Positions 1-20,764 of a DNA stretch of 64,000 nt are shown piece by piece (positions within the stretch are counted from its first letter, which is position 1; every line of letters begins with the position of its first letter). A program made the translations under genes and the position numbers. The notes under the pieces are model-generated. The model was not told the origin of the DNA. It searched no databases and was given only the letters and a program-made list of their open reading frames with translations. Location of the stretch: NCBI GenBank assembly GCA_026770705.1, contig JANJGN010000029.1:17360001-17424000 (forward strand), given 5' to 3'. The DNA comes from Isurus oxyrinchus. Its lineage: Eukaryota.

Positions 1-104
1 TGAATGCCTTTAGGCACTGAGTTGCTACATGTTTTCAACCACAACCATGCCAAGTGTGTCCTTGCAACCAGGGCAACACACAGACAGTCCTGCAGAGGTT
101 GTTG

Positions 105-385
105 GATAGCAACTGACAACAACAACTTACATTTATAAGAAGCGCCTTCAACATCATTAAGTATCCCAAGGTGCTTCACAGGAGTGTTATCAAACAAACT
201 TCAATAGGAGCCACATAAGCTCGGTCAAAAAAAGAGGTTTTAAGGAGTGCCTTGAAGAAAAAGAGATGTAATATGGTGGAGAGGTTAAGGAAGGGATCTC
301 CAGAGCTTAGGCCCTTGGCAGCTGAAGGCAGAGCCACAAACAGTGCAGCATGGAACCACAAGAGGCCAGAATTGGAGGAGCACCG
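105..385 (-). mobile_element. L2-type LINE 3' end fragment
   Basis: acaacaacttacatttata...agcgcct tail on the reverse strand plus agcttagggcc...gcagctgaaggc. The same motif recurs many times in the window (e.g. 14400-14660, 28900, 35500). Confidence 0.6.
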
Positions 386-1271
386 AGGTTATAGGGAAGG
401 AGGGGATTACAGAGATGGGGAGGGGTAACCAGGAGTCATCTGCCATTTCCTCCTCCCAGTCAGGGATCCCAAGGCCCAATTTTACCAACTGTCAGCAGCC
501 AACTCAGTACAGGCTAGAGATCAAATCCAAGACTTTCCTAATCTCTGTCAGCTGGCTACTTTGTAAATTTGCTGAGCCATGCTCATTCTTCGTCTTTCAC
601 ACATTGTTCCCCAGGGTGAAAGGGCAGTAGGTTGATTCCCTGCTCATATACTTTTTCAAAAATCACACAATAGACAATCTCAACAGTAGGGCCGCTTTTC
701 AAATGACAACAAAGCATTCCCAATTCTGGAATGTTGAACACATCATTCAGCGAGCAGCTGAGAAATGCAGGTGAAGAAAGTGTTGGGGTTTATACCTGGC
801 CTGTTCCTGGTTAGTGCATCTTAGCCAGGGGGTCTTAGTAGTCAGCCTGACCACTCTGGGTCTGGAAGGTGCAAATAAGACAAACTCCCCAGCCATTACT
901 GCCTTTAGGTGGGGCCTGCTAGAAAGGTGTGTGTGGACTTTGAACCCAATCCATGTTCCGCCCAATGCCAAACAGGTCTTCTCAAGATCATGAGTCTCTT
1001 CAAGGGCTCCGTACAGCAACAGATGGTCAATTTCCTTACTGAATGATTGGGTGGGAGACTCAGGGGGTTTGCACTAGTGCATTAAGCAGTTAACCAAAAG
1101 CCCAATTCCAGGTATCATTGGACATCAGGCATCATTACAGGCTGTCCACCAATATCCAATCATCCAAGGATAAGTTTATTCCTAATGTGGAAGTCCTGCT
1201 TTCATCCAAATTGGTAACATGATGGCTGTGCACCCACTATGGGGGCCTGATTTCAACAGACCAGCACTCAC

Positions 1272-1682
1272 CTTTGATAATCACCTGTGTCACCTCAGGC
1301 ACCCCTTTAACTTCAGCTTTTATCTTGTTAACTGGGTCACAGAAATAGAATCCAGCATCTGACACAAGTAATTCTTTGATGCGGAGTTGGGCAGTGTGAA
1401 GGGAAGTAATCAAGCTCTCGTAACGTGAAGGGAGATGACATTGCTTTATGAAATCAAGAGTATTCACAATGACATGGGCATTTTTACGGTCTTCAGGATG
1501 TTTATAATGCAGCCATTTCACAAACTGTCGCTCAGCTACCATTCTTTTGGAGAAATTTGTGATCACTTTGGGTTCCAAAGTCGGCCTTTGGATGGAGTCT
1601 GCAAACTTGCAAGTGATTATCAAATCTTCCTTTATTACACCATAGGCTTTCTTTATAAGTTGTGCATTGCTGCTACTTTTCC
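1272..1682 (-). CDS. Ig V-set domain exon of an unnamed immunoglobulin-superfamily gene (partial gene)
   Basis: Open frame contains B-strand Cys (IITCKF), C-strand Trp (FVKWLHY), D-strand RY, E-strand AQLRIKEL and F-strand DAGFYFC (DxGxYxC). It is bounded by acceptor ttgttttccag| (exon starts 1682) and donor AAAG|gtgagt (exon ends 1272). The 411-nt phase-1/phase-1 structure is the canonical Ig-domain exon architecture. Confidence 0.88.
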
Positions 1683-2345: not shown

Positions 2346-4828
2346 AGACTCCAACATTTTCCCAATGACAGATGTTAAACTAACTGGCCTTTAGTTACCT
2401 GTTTTTTGTCTCCCTCCCTTTTTGAATAAGGGTGTTACATTGGCAGTTTTCCAATCCTCTGGGACTTTTCCAGAATCTAAGGATTCTTGGAAGATTATTA
2501 CCAGTGCATCCACTATCTCTGTAGCTACTTCCTTTAATATCCTAGGATGCAACCCACCAGGTCCAGGGGACTTATCAACCTTTAGCCCCATTAGTTTCCC
2601 TAGTATTTTTTCTCTAGTGATAATTATTGTATTTATTTCCTCTTTTGCCCCTTGATTATTTAGTATTTTTTAATGCTATTAGTGTCTTCTACCGTGAAGA
2701 CTGAAGCAAAGTATTTATTCAACCCCTCTGCCATTTCCTGGTTCCCCTTATTATTTCCCCAGCCTCATTCTCTAAAAGGCCTATGTTCACTTTGGCCTCT
2801 CTCTTCCTTTTTATATATTTAAAGATGCTCTTACTGTCCGCTTTTATATTGCTTGCTTGTTTACCCTCAAAGTTAACTTTCCCCCTCTTCATTATTTTTT
2901 GTTCATCTTTTGTTGGTTTTTAAAACTTTCCCAATCCCCTGGCTTACCACTAATCTTTGCCACATTGGATATCTTTTCTTTTAATTTGATACTATCCTTA
3001 AGTTCCTTGGTTAACCATGGTTGGTTTATCCCCTACCTTGAATCCTTCTTCCTCACTGGGATTATCTTTGTTGTGAGTCATGAACTATTTTGTTAAACAA
3101 CGGTTCATCAACCGTTTTTTCTGCTAAAATCCTATCCCAGTTCACTCCAGCCAACTCTGCCCTCAGTCCTCTGTAATTACCCTTATTTAAGTTTAGCAGA
3201 GTTGCTTCCAACCCAAGTTTCTCACTCTCAAACTGAATGCTAAATTCTACCATATTATGATCATTGTTTCCTAGGGGATCCTTTACTCTGAGATTAGTTA
3301 TTAAATCTGCCTCATTACACATTACCAGATCCAAAATAGCTTGATCCTTGGTTGGATCTACAAAATATTGTTCTAGGAAACTGTCTCAAATACACTCTAT
3401 GAACTCTTGCTCGTGGCCATCTCTGCCAATTTTATTTTCCCAATCTACATGAAGGTTAAAGTCACCCATGATTAAAGTACTGACTTTTTTACATGCCCTC
3501 ATTATCTCCTGATTTATTCTCTGTCCTACAGGAAAGCTTCTGGTCAGGGGCCTACAGACTACTCCCACCAGTGTCTTCTTCCCCTTGTTATTTCTACCCT
3601 CCACTCATAAGGATTCTACATCTTCCGATCCAAGATCTTTCTTGCTATTGCACTTATTCCATCTCGTACTAACAAAGCTACCCCACCACCCTTTCCTCCC
3701 TGCCTGTCCTTTCGAAAAGTCACATACCCCTGAATATTTAGTTCCCAGCTTTGATCTCCTTGTAACCATGTCTCCTTAATGGCTATAAGATCATACCCAT
3801 TAACCTCTATTTGTGCCATTAATTCATTTATTTTGTTCCGGATACTACGTGCATTTATGTAAAGGGCCATTAATTTTGCCTTTTTACCATTTTTCCCCCC
3901 ATTGACCCTATTTGCTGTTTTTTTAAGCTTGGACACTCTGTCCCTTCCTGTCACACCCTGGGTATTTTACCTAAATAGCTGCCCTGCAAGACTGCCATGT
4001 CCTTTTGCTTTGTAAGCCTACATATCCCCTTTCCAGAACCCTCTCCCATTCTCTTTGTTTTAAACCTCTCTCTATAGCCCCAGTTATTCAGTCTGTCAGG
4101 ACACTGGTCTCAGCACAGTTCAAATGAAGCCAATCCCACCAGAACAGCTCTCTTCTACCCCAGTACTGGTGCCAGCGCCCCATGAATTGAAACCCAATCC
4201 TCCCACACCAATCTTTGAGCCACGCATTTAACTCCTTGACTTTATTTACCCTATGCCAGTTTACCCCTGGCTTAGGTAGTAATCCAGAGATTAATGCCTT
4301 GGAGGTTTTGCTTTTTAATTTGGCTCCTAACTGTTCAAATTCTTTCAGCAGAACCTCCTTTCTAGTCCTATCAATGTCGTTGGTACCAACATGGATGACG
4401 ACAACTGGATCCCTCCCCTCCTGCTCCGAGTTCCTCTCCAGTCCTGAAGAGATGCCCTTAACCCTGGCACCGGGCAGGCAACGCAGCCTTCGGGACTCAC
4501 GCTCATGGCTGCAGAAAACAGTATCTATCCCCCTAATTATACAGTCCCCTACCACTACTACACTCCCATTTCCTCCCCCCATTTGAATGCTCCCTGTACC
4601 ACGGTGCTGTGGTCAGTTCACTCAACCTCCCTTGCAGTTCCTGCTCTCACCCACACAGCTTGTAAGAACCTTGTAACTGCTGGACAGTTGCAGGGGCCGA
4701 GAGTCCTTGAATGCTCCCCCCCGCCGTGTCGCCATACCTGCTTCACCTGCAGTCACACCCTCCTGTCCCTGATCATAGGCCAAATTTGAATTACTTAATC
4801 TGAGAGGTGTGACCACCTCCTGGAGCAA
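2346..4828 (-). mobile_element. CR1-clade LINE, decayed: ORF1 SGNH/GDSL-like esterase, ORF2 AP endonuclease and linker; truncated before the RT core
   Basis: ORF fragments VVVVGDCIIRG...HVGTND (esterase), LYINARSIRNK, IMGDFNL, DHNMVEF and KSPGPGGLHPRILKE...PEDWKTANVTPLFKKG, broken by stops and frameshifts. Confidence 0.93.
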
Positions 4829-4970: not shown

Positions 4971-5367
4971 AGGTGTCTGGCACACACTGCAGCACCACAT
5001 CCTGTCGGTTTTCTCAGTGTATAGAAATACTACAAAACTCTAAAACACTGAAGTAAGATGAGAAGAAGCAATTTAAAAAGATGCAATCAAATATGTGAGA
5101 CTAAATGCAATTTACCCTCCCTCGTAGAGCAGTCCAACAGTTAGATAAACCCACCACGTTTCAGTCTTATTCCCAGGGTATCCCACTCCAAAGCGCACAA
5201 TAAAAAAAATCTGGTGACTTACTCAGCCAATTAGTCACAAATAATTTAAGAATAAATTAACAATTGCTCATTCCTGAGTGTAAATCCAAATACCATTGCT
5301 TTCCATTCGCCAAATTCCACTATCAACTGAATTTTTTTGATGCAGAGATAAAGAGTCAATTTTGTAC

Positions 5368-5431
5368 CTGCAAAATAAAGGTCAGTGAAGGACAAGTGCC
5401 AAGCCAACACGGAGAGGGCTAGACGATTCAT
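5368..5431 (-). CDS. Signal-peptide (leader) exon of the Ig V-set gene: MNRLALSVLAWHLSFTDLYFA-G
   Basis: ATG at 5431 (agcATGa), 21 codons of basic-then-hydrophobic leader, and a phase-1 donor GCAG|gtacaa at 5368/5367 that joins the V exon in frame. An acceptor tttcttttcctgcag| lies 57 nt upstream of the ATG, so the exon would start at 5488. Confidence 0.75.
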
Positions 5432-5944
5432 GCTTGTCTTTGCCGCTTTCTCTCTTCTACAAAGTAACTGTGTGATATTTACCTAAAACTGCAGGAAAAG
5501 AAACCCCAGTGATGGTGCAATTATTTATTGCACAGCTCATGTTCCCTTGTGCAATGGGCATGAGTCAATTATACCATAAGATTGAGCTTTTATTCCTGTT
5601 TTCATCCCAACATCTGTATAATTTTTAATGTCTCATTTCTGACAGCCACTGAGCTCTGGGCTCTCATGTTAACGATGGCAGAATGATGGAGGCGACAGGA
5701 ACCTTCACAAACAGCACCACTGACATGATATATGGACAACTCCATCCCTCCTGTATGGGCAATTTAGTAGAGATCGAGCAGCATCAATACCATTCCACAA
5801 CTGCTACCGGTACACAAATCAAGTTAGTCCCTTGTGGCAATACCAAGAACAGCACTAGCTTAACCAATTGAGGCAATTTGGTCCAAAGAAGGCCTTTATA
5901 GTCAAGACCTGTCTATTTCGAACTGTTGAGTTAGATTCCAGCTT

Positions 5945-6150
5945 GAACCATTGACAGACAAGAGCCAAACCAACCTAGAGAGAGCTACAAGATTCATGCT
6001 TGTGTGTGCTGCATTCCTCCCTTCTACAAAGTGACTGCATGCAATACATCTCAGTAATGGTGTAATTATTTGCTTTACAGTTCTTGTTCCTTTTTGTAAT
6101 GGGACATGATACAATTATACCATAAGATCCTGTTTTGATCCTGTTTTTTC
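5945..6150 (-). pseudogene. Diverged tandem duplicate of the leader exon and its upstream flank (MNLVALSRLVWLLSVNG...)
   Basis: Aligns by eye with about 5385-5605 (gattcatgcttgt, cttctacaaagt.actg, caattataccataagat). ATG at 5997. It lacks the polypyrimidine acceptor and the equivalent GT donor, and runs into a stop at 5904-5902. Confidence 0.65.
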
Positions 6151-18230: not shown

Positions 18231-19715
18231 TTATTTGATACAATTTAGGTATCTTCAGGTAGGAGTCAATGAGGACTAATGGTTGTTTCCTAACTAGACA
18301 GAATATTACTTTAAATTACATTGAGAGAGTAGGGCAAGGGAATACATGTTAAAATTAGTAAAAGGCAAATTTAAGCCTAATATCACAAATGTTTCAAACA
18401 AAGCCTGACTCCTGGATAAAGTCATATGGCCAAGAATCACTGAAGAACTAACTGGATGCTGCAAAGTGTAGCTATAAACATATCATCAGTGAAAAGAATT
18501 AAAAATCTCCATATCCCTTTGTGCACATTAAAAAGTGCAAAGATCAGCTTAAAACTATGTACAGCAATGTACAATGTCATTCCTTCAGTCCATTTTCTTA
18601 CTTTGGTTACCTGGGGTGTGAGGGGTTGAATGCTTCTCCTTATTCCAAAGGCTGAGAGGGAAGATGAGAGATTTCTTCACATTGAAGGTCTTCATGATTT
18701 GGGATGCACTACCTAAAAATCTGGTAAAATCAGATCCCATAATCATTTCCATTAGGGACCAGGACTTGATGAGGACTATTTGCAGGGTTATGGGAAAAAA
18801 GCTGGTGCGTGGGATCAAATTGGACATGTCTTTCAAAGAGCTAGCAGAGGCAAGAGGGGCCAAATGGCCTCTTTCTATGATTAAAAAGAAAACTGGCATT
18901 TATCTAAGCGCATTTCACCTCAGCCCACCCCAAAGTACTTAGCAGCCAATTAAATACTTTTGAAGTGTAGTCCCTGTTGTAATGCAGCAAACGCGGCAGC
19001 CAATTTTGCGCACAGCATGATCCCACAGACAAGCATGTGGTAATGGCTGGATAATGTGTGTGTTTTGCGCTGTGAGATTCTATACATTGTGAGCTCATGC
19101 AGAACATTCTGGCTTCCACGTCGATGGGTTCAATGTATACACGTAATATATGACCAACCGGGGTTACATTGTCAGAGAGGAAACTGGGTCAATTGATTTT
19201 CAAAGAGTTCCAGAGGGTGGGAGACAATCACACCACCCCCCCCCCCCCCCCCCCCCAACTCCCTGGCTGTGAATCAGGGAGGCACAATGCAGAAAGGGTG
19301 GTGGGGGGGATCGGTCATCAGTGAGACGCCTCTGAGGAGGTTGAGAGGTCCCCTCTAGATGGTGCTATGCGTGAAGGCAACAGGACACCTGAAGCAATGA
19401 CGAATTAGGCAGAGACCAGCCTCCAGCCCCCAGCGCAGTGTGAGTCAGCGCAGTACCTGGATCCGAAAGCCGGCAGAAGGAGGGGAGGAGGTAAGCGGCG
19501 GGGCAAAGGCAAGGAGGGGATGAAGTGAAATGAGAGCTCTTTCTCCAGGCATGGTCTGCGACTCCCACTCAACACGCCCGTGGAGCCGAAGTTGAAACCG
19601 AAGGAGGACCAGCCGTGGCGCAGAGAGGTGGTGGGGGGAAAAAAATATATATATTTACTGGCTCTACTTGCCCGGTTTGCCCCGACGCTGCGGATGGCCG
19701 CTCTTTCCTCCTGCT

Positions 19716-19845
19716 AGGGTAGATGTGGATGAAATGAGGAAGACTTTCCTTGTCCCGGAGATCAAGCCTTTGGATCAGTACGATTTTTCAAGAGCCAAGA
19801 TCGCAGGAAGCCTATCGTGGCTCCTGTCCAAATCCTATGGATCAG
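19716..19845 (+). CDS. CAMSAP3: First coding exon of a calmodulin-regulated spectrin-associated protein (CAMSAP3-like); first in-frame ATG at 19734, homologous start position 19716 reads AGG
   Basis: Translates (R)VDVDEMRKTFLVPEIKPLDQYDFSRAKIAGSLSWLLSKSYGS, matching the CAMSAP2/3 N-terminus. FLVPEIK.LDQYDFSRAK..SL.W favours CAMSAP3 over CAMSAP2. Phase-1 donor TCAG|gtacat at 19845/19846 is where CAMSAP intron 1 is expected. Family call is strong, paralog call moderate. Confidence 0.85.
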
Positions 19846-20764
19846 GTACATGATTTGTTATGGGAGCCTGTTCTCTTATTGTTTGATAGGGAGGAGGGAG
19901 GGGGGACAGTGAACAGAGAAATCGCTCCTGGTAATGCGCAACCGGAAGATGGTCTCATTAAAACAAAACTAGCGGCATTGAACCCTGTCCTGCAGTCCCT
20001 GAACTCCCGAGTTGGGGGTAGAATGTATCAAGCGAGGGAGGGAGGAGGAGGGGAGGGGGAAGAATCCCATTTTTATTTCAACCCTCCTCCTCCTCCTCCT
20101 TTCCCCCCCCCCCCCCAAAAAAAACAGTTACTTGATTATTTTTTTAATGGTACCTTTAATTTGCTTTCTCCCTCCCTCCCTGTACAGTGAATACATTGGA
20201 AGCTTATTTTCGCTGGGTCTTGTGCGGCTGGACCCTCGGCTGCGCTGGTGCTTGATTTATGGGCCATTGTTAACGAGGGCTCCCGAATCAGTTCCAGACC
20301 ATCATTCGGGGCTGGACGAATCCAAGGCAAAAAAAAACCCCCACTCATTGTTAAGATCTGCCTCGAACCGTGCGTTTGCGATGCGTTATTGATCTAATGC
20401 ATTCGGGGCTAAACCATTTAATTAAACTGGTTAAGAGGATTAAGAAGCAGCCCTGAACTGGGTTGGTGTGTGTGTGTGTTTTCTCTATCTGTCTGTCTCT
20501 CTATCTCCTCGGGCTGGCTGTGTGAAATTAAATGGCCTTATTTATTTATTTGTTTGTTTGTTTGTTTTTGGGGAAGAAAAAAGGCGCTTGTTGGCCGGGA
20601 ATTAAAATAAAATAAACCCATGAACGCCTTTCCCTGATTTTTGTTTTTGTAAAGGGGACAGGTCCCAATGTGTAATTGCAAGAACGCGACCTCGGTGTCG
20701 GTTTCACCTGGTGAAATTGACAGCCGGTCGGTTAGAGGCGAGCGGGATTGTAATGGAGTTAGTG

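Follow-up and report, generated by a model that had tools for sequence, protein, structure and literature searches.

The window analysed here, 64,000 nucleotides of contig C29 of Isurus oxyrinchus (C29:17360001-17424000), carries on its reverse strand the 5' part of a gene for a receptor of the immunoglobulin superfamily (IgSF). The leader (signal peptide) exon (5368..5431, (-)) begins with an ATG at 5431, ends at a phase-1 donor at 5367 and aligns with the leaders of homologues. The V-set Ig exon of domain 1 (1272..1682, (-)) is supported by an AG acceptor, a GT donor, a Pfam match just under the cut-off and spliced contigs, and intron 2 (1..1271, (-)) runs past the window start, beyond which the remaining exons lie, all on the same strand. 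The adjoining piece L002 (C29:17350001-17360000) holds the C1-type exon of domain 2 (L002:9407-9706, (-); Pfam C1-set, 9e-12), which lacks a B-strand Cys and has Cys215 at its D-E turn, the C2/I-type exon of domain 3 (L002:8270-8548, (-); Pfam Ig_3, 1.3e-11) and, from spliced contigs, the transmembrane (TM) exon (L002:6277-6368, (-)) and three tail exons with one Tyr motif each (L002:5869-5922, 2637-2711 and 2039-2110, (-)). The last coding exon, with the stop codon (L003:9238-9255, (-)), lies about 10.7 kb beyond the window. The spliced frame is open throughout and encodes 454 aa in the order leader-V-C1-C2/I-TM-tyrosine tail, a type I membrane protein. The first-pass annotation had proposed a secreted or surface receptor; given the TM segment, three domains and tyrosine tail, the surface alternative holds, and neither the secreted form nor a lone V domain does.

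The same annotation had pointed to synteny next to CAMSAP3, and a reading frame that contains the first coding exon of a CAMSAP3-like gene does adjoin the receptor gene head to head (19596..19850, (+); Pfam CH_CAMSAP2_N, 2.5e-8). Its CKK exons lie at C29:17.56 Mb and score slightly best with CAMSAP3. A single-frame Tctex-1 family gene (L003:4160-4531, (+); Pfam, 6e-20) faces the receptor gene's 3' end in convergent orientation, and the gene order on C29 reads DOCK-C (-), Tctex-1 (+), receptor (-), CAMSAP (+), on the basis of 40 candidate frames between which small genes may be missed. Score alone separates neither DOCK6 from DOCK7 nor CAMSAP3 from CAMSAP1. Intron 1 contains, at about 2360-4800 of the window, a broken retroelement, presumably of LINE type, to which many contigs match at 85-95% identity. 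A degenerate second copy of the leader start and its upstream sequence lies at 5948-6146 (compared with 5382-5601; 70% over 222 columns), and is covered by none of the four runs compared.

A spliced gene with an intact V-set exon

Four of the 15 runs listed were compared (X1, X2, X5 and X6), and exon joining is documented by spliced contigs from three studies and two species. None of the runs is recorded as RNA; that they are RNA is a software guess, although their contigs skip introns exactly. In X2, letters 30-440 of a 2185-nt contig match the V exon without a difference, and from letter 438 the C1, domain 3, TM and tail exons follow one another, introns being skipped with CT..AC ends; its V part and its C1-to-tail part were assigned to one contig by matching length and depth. 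The same joining is found in X5 and X6, from a relative species, with 11-12 differences and no gaps in the V exon. Coverage of that exon is end to end in X1, X2 and X5, and begins at 1678 in X6. Both junctions singled out for checking by the first-pass annotation can be followed in these data. Onward from 1272, the V exon is spliced to the C1 exon in the contigs. For 5368 to 1682 the lengths agree, the junction itself being inferred from depth arithmetic in the relative species: in the X5 contig the V match is preceded by 99 nt, and the depth bins of 5209-5642 yield 59+40=99 nt over 5367-5465. A secreted V-only isoform was considered and rejected, as the one X1 contig that enters the intron (depth 6.6) is no deeper than other intron pieces and is read as unspliced RNA or DNA. 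When the genome (4.98 Gb) was searched, once with the V exon and once, with a stricter first step, with the Heptranchias protein, one V match was obtained, and the gene is single-copy in this genome.

The V exon is in phase 1 at both ends and consists of 136 whole codons without a stop. In precursor numbering it encodes Cys46, Trp78, Cys103 and Cys136, the last (1339..1341, (-)) being the canonical partner of Cys46 in an F strand that reads DAGFYFC. Its Pfam V-set match (E=1.4e-5) reaches 25.6 bits against a cut-off of 26 bits, and begins only in the later part of the B-C loop. Among the nine shark sequences described below, the Trp and D-G-F-Y hallmarks are invariant and both canonical Cys are present in eight. 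An AlphaFold model of the V domain built on the nine-row alignment has strands A', B, C, C', D, E, F and G at a whole-model pLDDT of 51; its top VIA matches are the V-set folds of PD-1 (Z 8.5, rmsd 3.3, 103 aligned), NKp44 (8.3) and CD28 (8.1), the best Foldseek E is 1.3e-3, and the V-set domains returned by both have tied, middling scores. The single-sequence model is helical (pLDDT 43) and was discounted. At the exon end, no recombination signal sequence (RSS) was found: a GT donor closes the exon, and a single heptamer with one mismatch lies about 30 nt into the intron, without a nonamer. A J-like Gly-x-Gly(-Thr) G strand, the mark of non-rearranging VJ genes of UrIg and NCR3 type, is likewise absent from all nine sequences, whose G strands read, for example, KGVPEVTQ, KREPDVT and KGESDVT. 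With the V-to-C1 splice in the contigs, the description of a non-rearranging, germline-joined V domain that ends in a splice donor is borne out, as are the 31 residues from Cys46 to Trp78 in an intact exon and the third Cys. The V exon is thus confirmed as a real, conserved feature.

Shark orthologues, the B-C loop and the third cysteine

Orthologues were found in eight named sharks, which we take to represent five orders: Carcharodon carcharias, Cetorhinus maximus, Scyliorhinus torazame, S. canicula, Mustelus asterias, Heterodontus francisci, Heptranchias perlo and Pristiophorus japonicus. With the window, they make up the nine sequences compared throughout. Identity of their V domains to that of the window falls from 91% to 39%. 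HMMER against 1.84 billion representatives gave 16 matches, four of them shark homologues, and profile searches added more; with only the V exon as query, a word-indexed search of proteins of 74-238 aa gave no match. Two of the 12 non-shark-type HMMER matches, from an insect and a snailfish, were checked and proved repeat-driven. In a domain-2 tree of 23 rows all nine sequences group together (96/89), and lamniforms and carcharhiniforms join (100/99), in agreement with the shark species tree and with a likely lamniform origin of the window; the domain-3 tree has no starred branch. Sequence and profile searches returned no orthologue from rays, chimaeras, carpet sharks or bony vertebrates, a weak absence since two of them also missed one known member each (Heptranchias and Heterodontus, respectively). 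The receptor is apparently restricted to sharks, and the proposal of a lineage-specific receptor stands within searches of that reach. It had also been called an orphan, which does not hold strictly, since it has orthologues in eight named sharks, under automatic names only (cell adhesion molecule 1/3-like or Siglec-8/12/14-like, the Siglec-like label being borne by proteins of four of the eight species, and both labels by Cetorhinus). A search of openly accessible literature, mostly at the level of titles and abstract openings, returned nothing on this gene, which is undescribed within the literature covered.

The alignment places a segment of 31 codons (1516..1608, (-)) between Cys46 (1609-1611) and Trp78 (1513-1515). 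This B-C interval, the equivalent of CDR1, is 31 residues long in seven of the nine sequences, 30 in Cetorhinus and 33 in S. torazame. Among Ig/TCR-like V loci of the same genome it measures 13 (20 loci) or 11 (10 loci), in a control formed by the 30 best of 150 V-set loci listed, all of them Ig/TCR-like and therefore biased, with one length taken by eye. Long B-C segments, often rich in Ser/Thr/Pro, are also found in the V domains of lecticans and link proteins: in this genome six V exons that precede link modules, and that we assume to be of aggrecan/versican/HAPLN type, have intervals of 17, 17, 21, 22, 22 and 23 (one 22 by eye). These belong to secreted matrix proteins, none is listed as a match in the sequence searches, and their intervals are at least 8 residues shorter, the window loop exceeding the longest by 8. 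At roughly 2.5 times the ordinary length, the loop is an outlier even against link/lectican V domains. The usual range of 10-17 residues assumed earlier was too narrow, since link-module V domains here reach 23, and the excess, put earlier at about 15-20 aa, is about 18-20 residues over Ig/TCR loci and only 8-14 over lectican/link-type domains.

What such a loop does can be read in two ways. It likely forms, at a fixed length, part of the outer binding tip and would contact a partner there, as we favour. Alternatively, the same receptor may carry it as a flexible, glycosylated spacer or shield and bind through the conserved C-C'/F face, a possible but doubtful reading. Mean pairwise identity of the loop (40%) is the lowest of nine regions (46-68% in the others), Ser/Thr/Pro makes up 19-29% of it against 15% of the remainder of the window's V domain, and an N-glycan sequon lies within it in four of the nine sequences, that of the window included. 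In the nine-row AlphaFold model the loop has a pLDDT of about 32 and no fixed shape. Tyr59 and Lys60 in the numbering of the domain (Trp-x-x-Tyr-Lys, on the C-C'/F face) are invariant. The low identity and pLDDT fit a floppy spacer as well as a binding tip. Nevertheless, a low pLDDT is expected from a nine-row alignment, and a Lys at the loop start and a Glu six residues before the Trp are invariant in all nine sequences. Throughout the five shark orders the loop also keeps to 30-33 residues, against shifts of 6-11 residues in adjoining segments (Trp to F-strand Cys, 46-57; F-G-G stretch, 17-23), which argues against a spacer.

The third Cys, Cys103 (1438..1440, (-)), aligns within an insertion of about 6-11 residues before strand D that is confined to lamniform and carcharhiniform sequences (six of nine). 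It is jointly present with Cys215 in these six and jointly absent with it in the other three; since both arose in one clade, this co-occurrence counts as one event and not as independent support. The third Cys is a derived, later gain, separate from the loop. Ig topology sets the C''-D region at the base of the first domain and the D-E turn at the top of the second, which makes an inter-domain disulfide plausible. Domain 2 lacks a B-strand Cys in eight of the nine sequences, and Heterodontus and Pristiophorus retain a lone F-strand Cys there, for which Cys215 is therefore not needed as a partner. A predicted complex of V and C1 domains, built without alignments, scored 0.05 and speaks neither for nor against such a bond. 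The cysteine pattern suggests that Cys103 would pair with Cys215 in lamniform and carcharhiniform sharks and lock domains 1 and 2. The Siglec MAG has a domain 1-2 disulfide, C37-C165 (PMC5150538); Siglecs reach a comparable lock with a cysteine pair other than the one predicted here. In the Pristiophorus orthologue, Ser replaces each of the two canonical V cysteines, and the C-C' region has gained two Cys; its middle tyrosine motif is duplicated, and one isoform omits the C1 exon.

Tail motifs and known receptor families

Three Tyr motifs are kept in all nine sequences: P-x-Y-[MV], V-Y-[ED]-[TS]-L and [IV]-Y-x-N. YxN and YxxL patterns accordingly occur in nine of nine, ITSM and ITAM in none, and the ITIM pattern ([IVLS]xYxx[LV]; PMC7226832) in one, the duplicated Pristiophorus motif. 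The TM segment has no charged residue, except for one Arg at its outer edge in Mustelus. The receptor likely signals through these inner-tail tyrosines. A conserved tail YxN is shared with DNAM-1 (CD226) and other ITT-like receptors, although DNAM-1 has two V domains, unlike the shark receptor, and no sequence match to it stands among the matches listed. After Src phosphorylation, the pYxN of DNAM-1 binds Grb2 (PMC4647266), and Grb2 binding is predicted here.

Kinship with Siglecs is the next reading to be weighed. Profile matches of domains 2-3 are strong for Ig2-3 of MAG (Siglec-4; PDB 5lf5; E=1.7e-25) and for CD22 (5vkj; 1.6e-17), and with the Carcharodon protein taken whole the top Atlas neighbours (0.96-0.97) are sialoadhesin, CD22, Siglec-10 and MAG. 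CD22 also has a Tyr tail. The receptor could be an offshoot of the MAG/CD22 lineage with a remodelled V domain and sialic-acid binding lost, and the automatic labels of half of the species point to Siglecs. Yet CEA, contactins, SIRP and nectin-1 match domains 2-3 too. In Siglecs the V cysteines form a B-E intra-sheet pair, but none of the nine sequences has an E-strand Cys, eight have the B-F pair, and domain 2 carries no Cys in its B-C loop. The position after the F-strand Cys, which we take as the equivalent of R118 of MAG, is Asp in the window and Arg in one of the nine. The rarity of the ITIM and the lack of a charged residue inside the TM for DAP12 are further departures, and the B-C loop is far longer than in Siglecs. 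Finally, the closest domain 2 among the genome loci scanned belongs to a VJ-C1-C2 gene on contig C24 (30% identity; sister at 89/86, not starred). MAG Ig1-3 has the same V-C1-C2 order, and its R118 is the F-strand Arg that binds sialic acid (PMC5150538). On balance, a Siglec origin seems unlikely.

An adhesion molecule of nectin/CADM type, to which the automatic label 'cell adhesion molecule 3-like' points, is improbable. Nectins/CADMs, SIRP-alpha and CEACAMs share with the receptor a V-first ectodomain and domain-level matches; the V-C1/C2-C2 layout of nectins and CADMs is present (Pfam), nectin-1 and CADM4 are among the PDB profile matches (E 1e-13 to 6e-13), and Atlas feature matches of the Heptranchias V domain fall in nectin and CD200 V clusters. 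These matches are no better than those to many other IgSF proteins, and as a single sequence the V domain gave no nectin/CADM, SIRP-alpha or CEACAM match at E<=0.001. Nor is there a common tail. SIRP is V-C1-C1 with ITIMs, and nectins and CADMs end in a PDZ-binding motif, of which no conserved form was found in the orthologues, whose C-termini differ (some models possibly being truncated) and which have three conserved tyrosine exons instead. The labels CADM3-like and Siglec-8/12/14-like therefore fail on defining features, and the earlier remark that it was not recognised as any named IgSF member survives. That the loop is artefactual, produced by a cryptic intron or by pseudogene decay, as a few in-frame GT..AG pairs and low-depth contigs entering introns might suggest, is refuted by contigs from all four runs and three studies, which cover the V exon without a gap so that no intron takes out the loop, and by nine sequences that keep frame and loop.

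CAMSAP and NOTCH paralogues occur together on three contigs (C8, C16 and C29), and C21 holds a fourth NOTCH. The lungfish CAMSAP3 is next to NOTCH3/BRD4, marked MHCpara-19, and shares its chromosome with DOCK6 (PMC10751288), the genes adjoining it being unnamed LOCs (PMC10751288 supplement). By this analogy, C29 would correspond to MHC paralogon 19. Such a place recalls the shark UrIg/UrIg2 genes, in which a germline-joined V is also followed by a C1-type domain (PMC12227049); the receptor differs from them in having no J-like G strand, one C1, a C2 third domain and a Tyr tail, and lies on a different chromosome.

The exon layout is also that of two unnamed VJ-C1-C2-TM genes on C24, which differ in their J-like G strand, their B-C interval of 15 and a V domain that cannot be aligned with that of the receptor (best blastp E 0.012). 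Gene 1 lies at 26.94 Mb (L106:4910-5263, L106:7673-8098 and L107:1330-1791) and gene 2 at C24:60269-75956 (L128, L129). Both are non-rearranging VJ-C1-C2(-TM) genes with GQGT G strands, V domains 48% identical to each other and an extra Cys in the C'-D region; they are candidate antigen-receptor-like relics. A V-like exon (L125:9043-9537, (-); C24:27004043-27004537) lies some 60 kb away from the C24 VJ gene and in opposite orientation to it. Elsewhere, L092-L100 (C10:39.68-39.77 Mb, (-)) hold a tandem run of roughly twelve C1-type exons, several of which have long C-D insertions; they may represent multi-C1 B7-H6-like genes.

Proposed function and significance

The reading that we favour, at a probability of slightly more than one half, is that of a spliced, single-copy shark type I receptor, likely signalling, whose 31-residue loop is likely part of the membrane-distal tip. 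Of this, the structure and splicing of the gene, its orthology, the length of the loop, the cysteine pattern and the tail motifs are shown directly. This V-C1-C2 tyrosine-tailed IgSF receptor is predicted to bind a ligand. Binding at the membrane-distal tip would lead to phosphorylation of the three tail tyrosines by Src-family kinases; the last (YxN) would recruit Grb2 in the manner of DNAM-1, and the middle one (YxxL, not an ITIM) another SH2 protein. The output would more probably be activating or co-stimulatory than inhibitory and would require no DAP12/FcR-gamma partner, although YxN alone leaves the sign of signalling unfixed. A fuller picture can be drawn only tentatively, and we consider it rather unlikely as a whole: an ancient V-C1-C2 receptor of MHC paralogon 19, kin to the VJ-C1-C2 genes, with an ordered, protruding, germline CDR1-like loop of fixed length and drifting surface, stiffened in one clade by a new domain 1-2 disulfide. 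If true, this would give V domains a novel means of making a binding site, and be a CDR1 counterpart of ultralong CDR3s.

At present, the gain from this receptor is descriptive: a conserved, unnamed member is added to the inventory of shark immune-type IgSF genes. Its V and C1 domains and its probable MHC-paralogous place may have a modest bearing on the origin of antigen-receptor-like genes. Finally, a CDR1-equivalent loop that stays near 31 residues in the main lineages of sharks offers a natural test of what the V scaffold tolerates at this site, which is relevant to the engineering of Ig folds.
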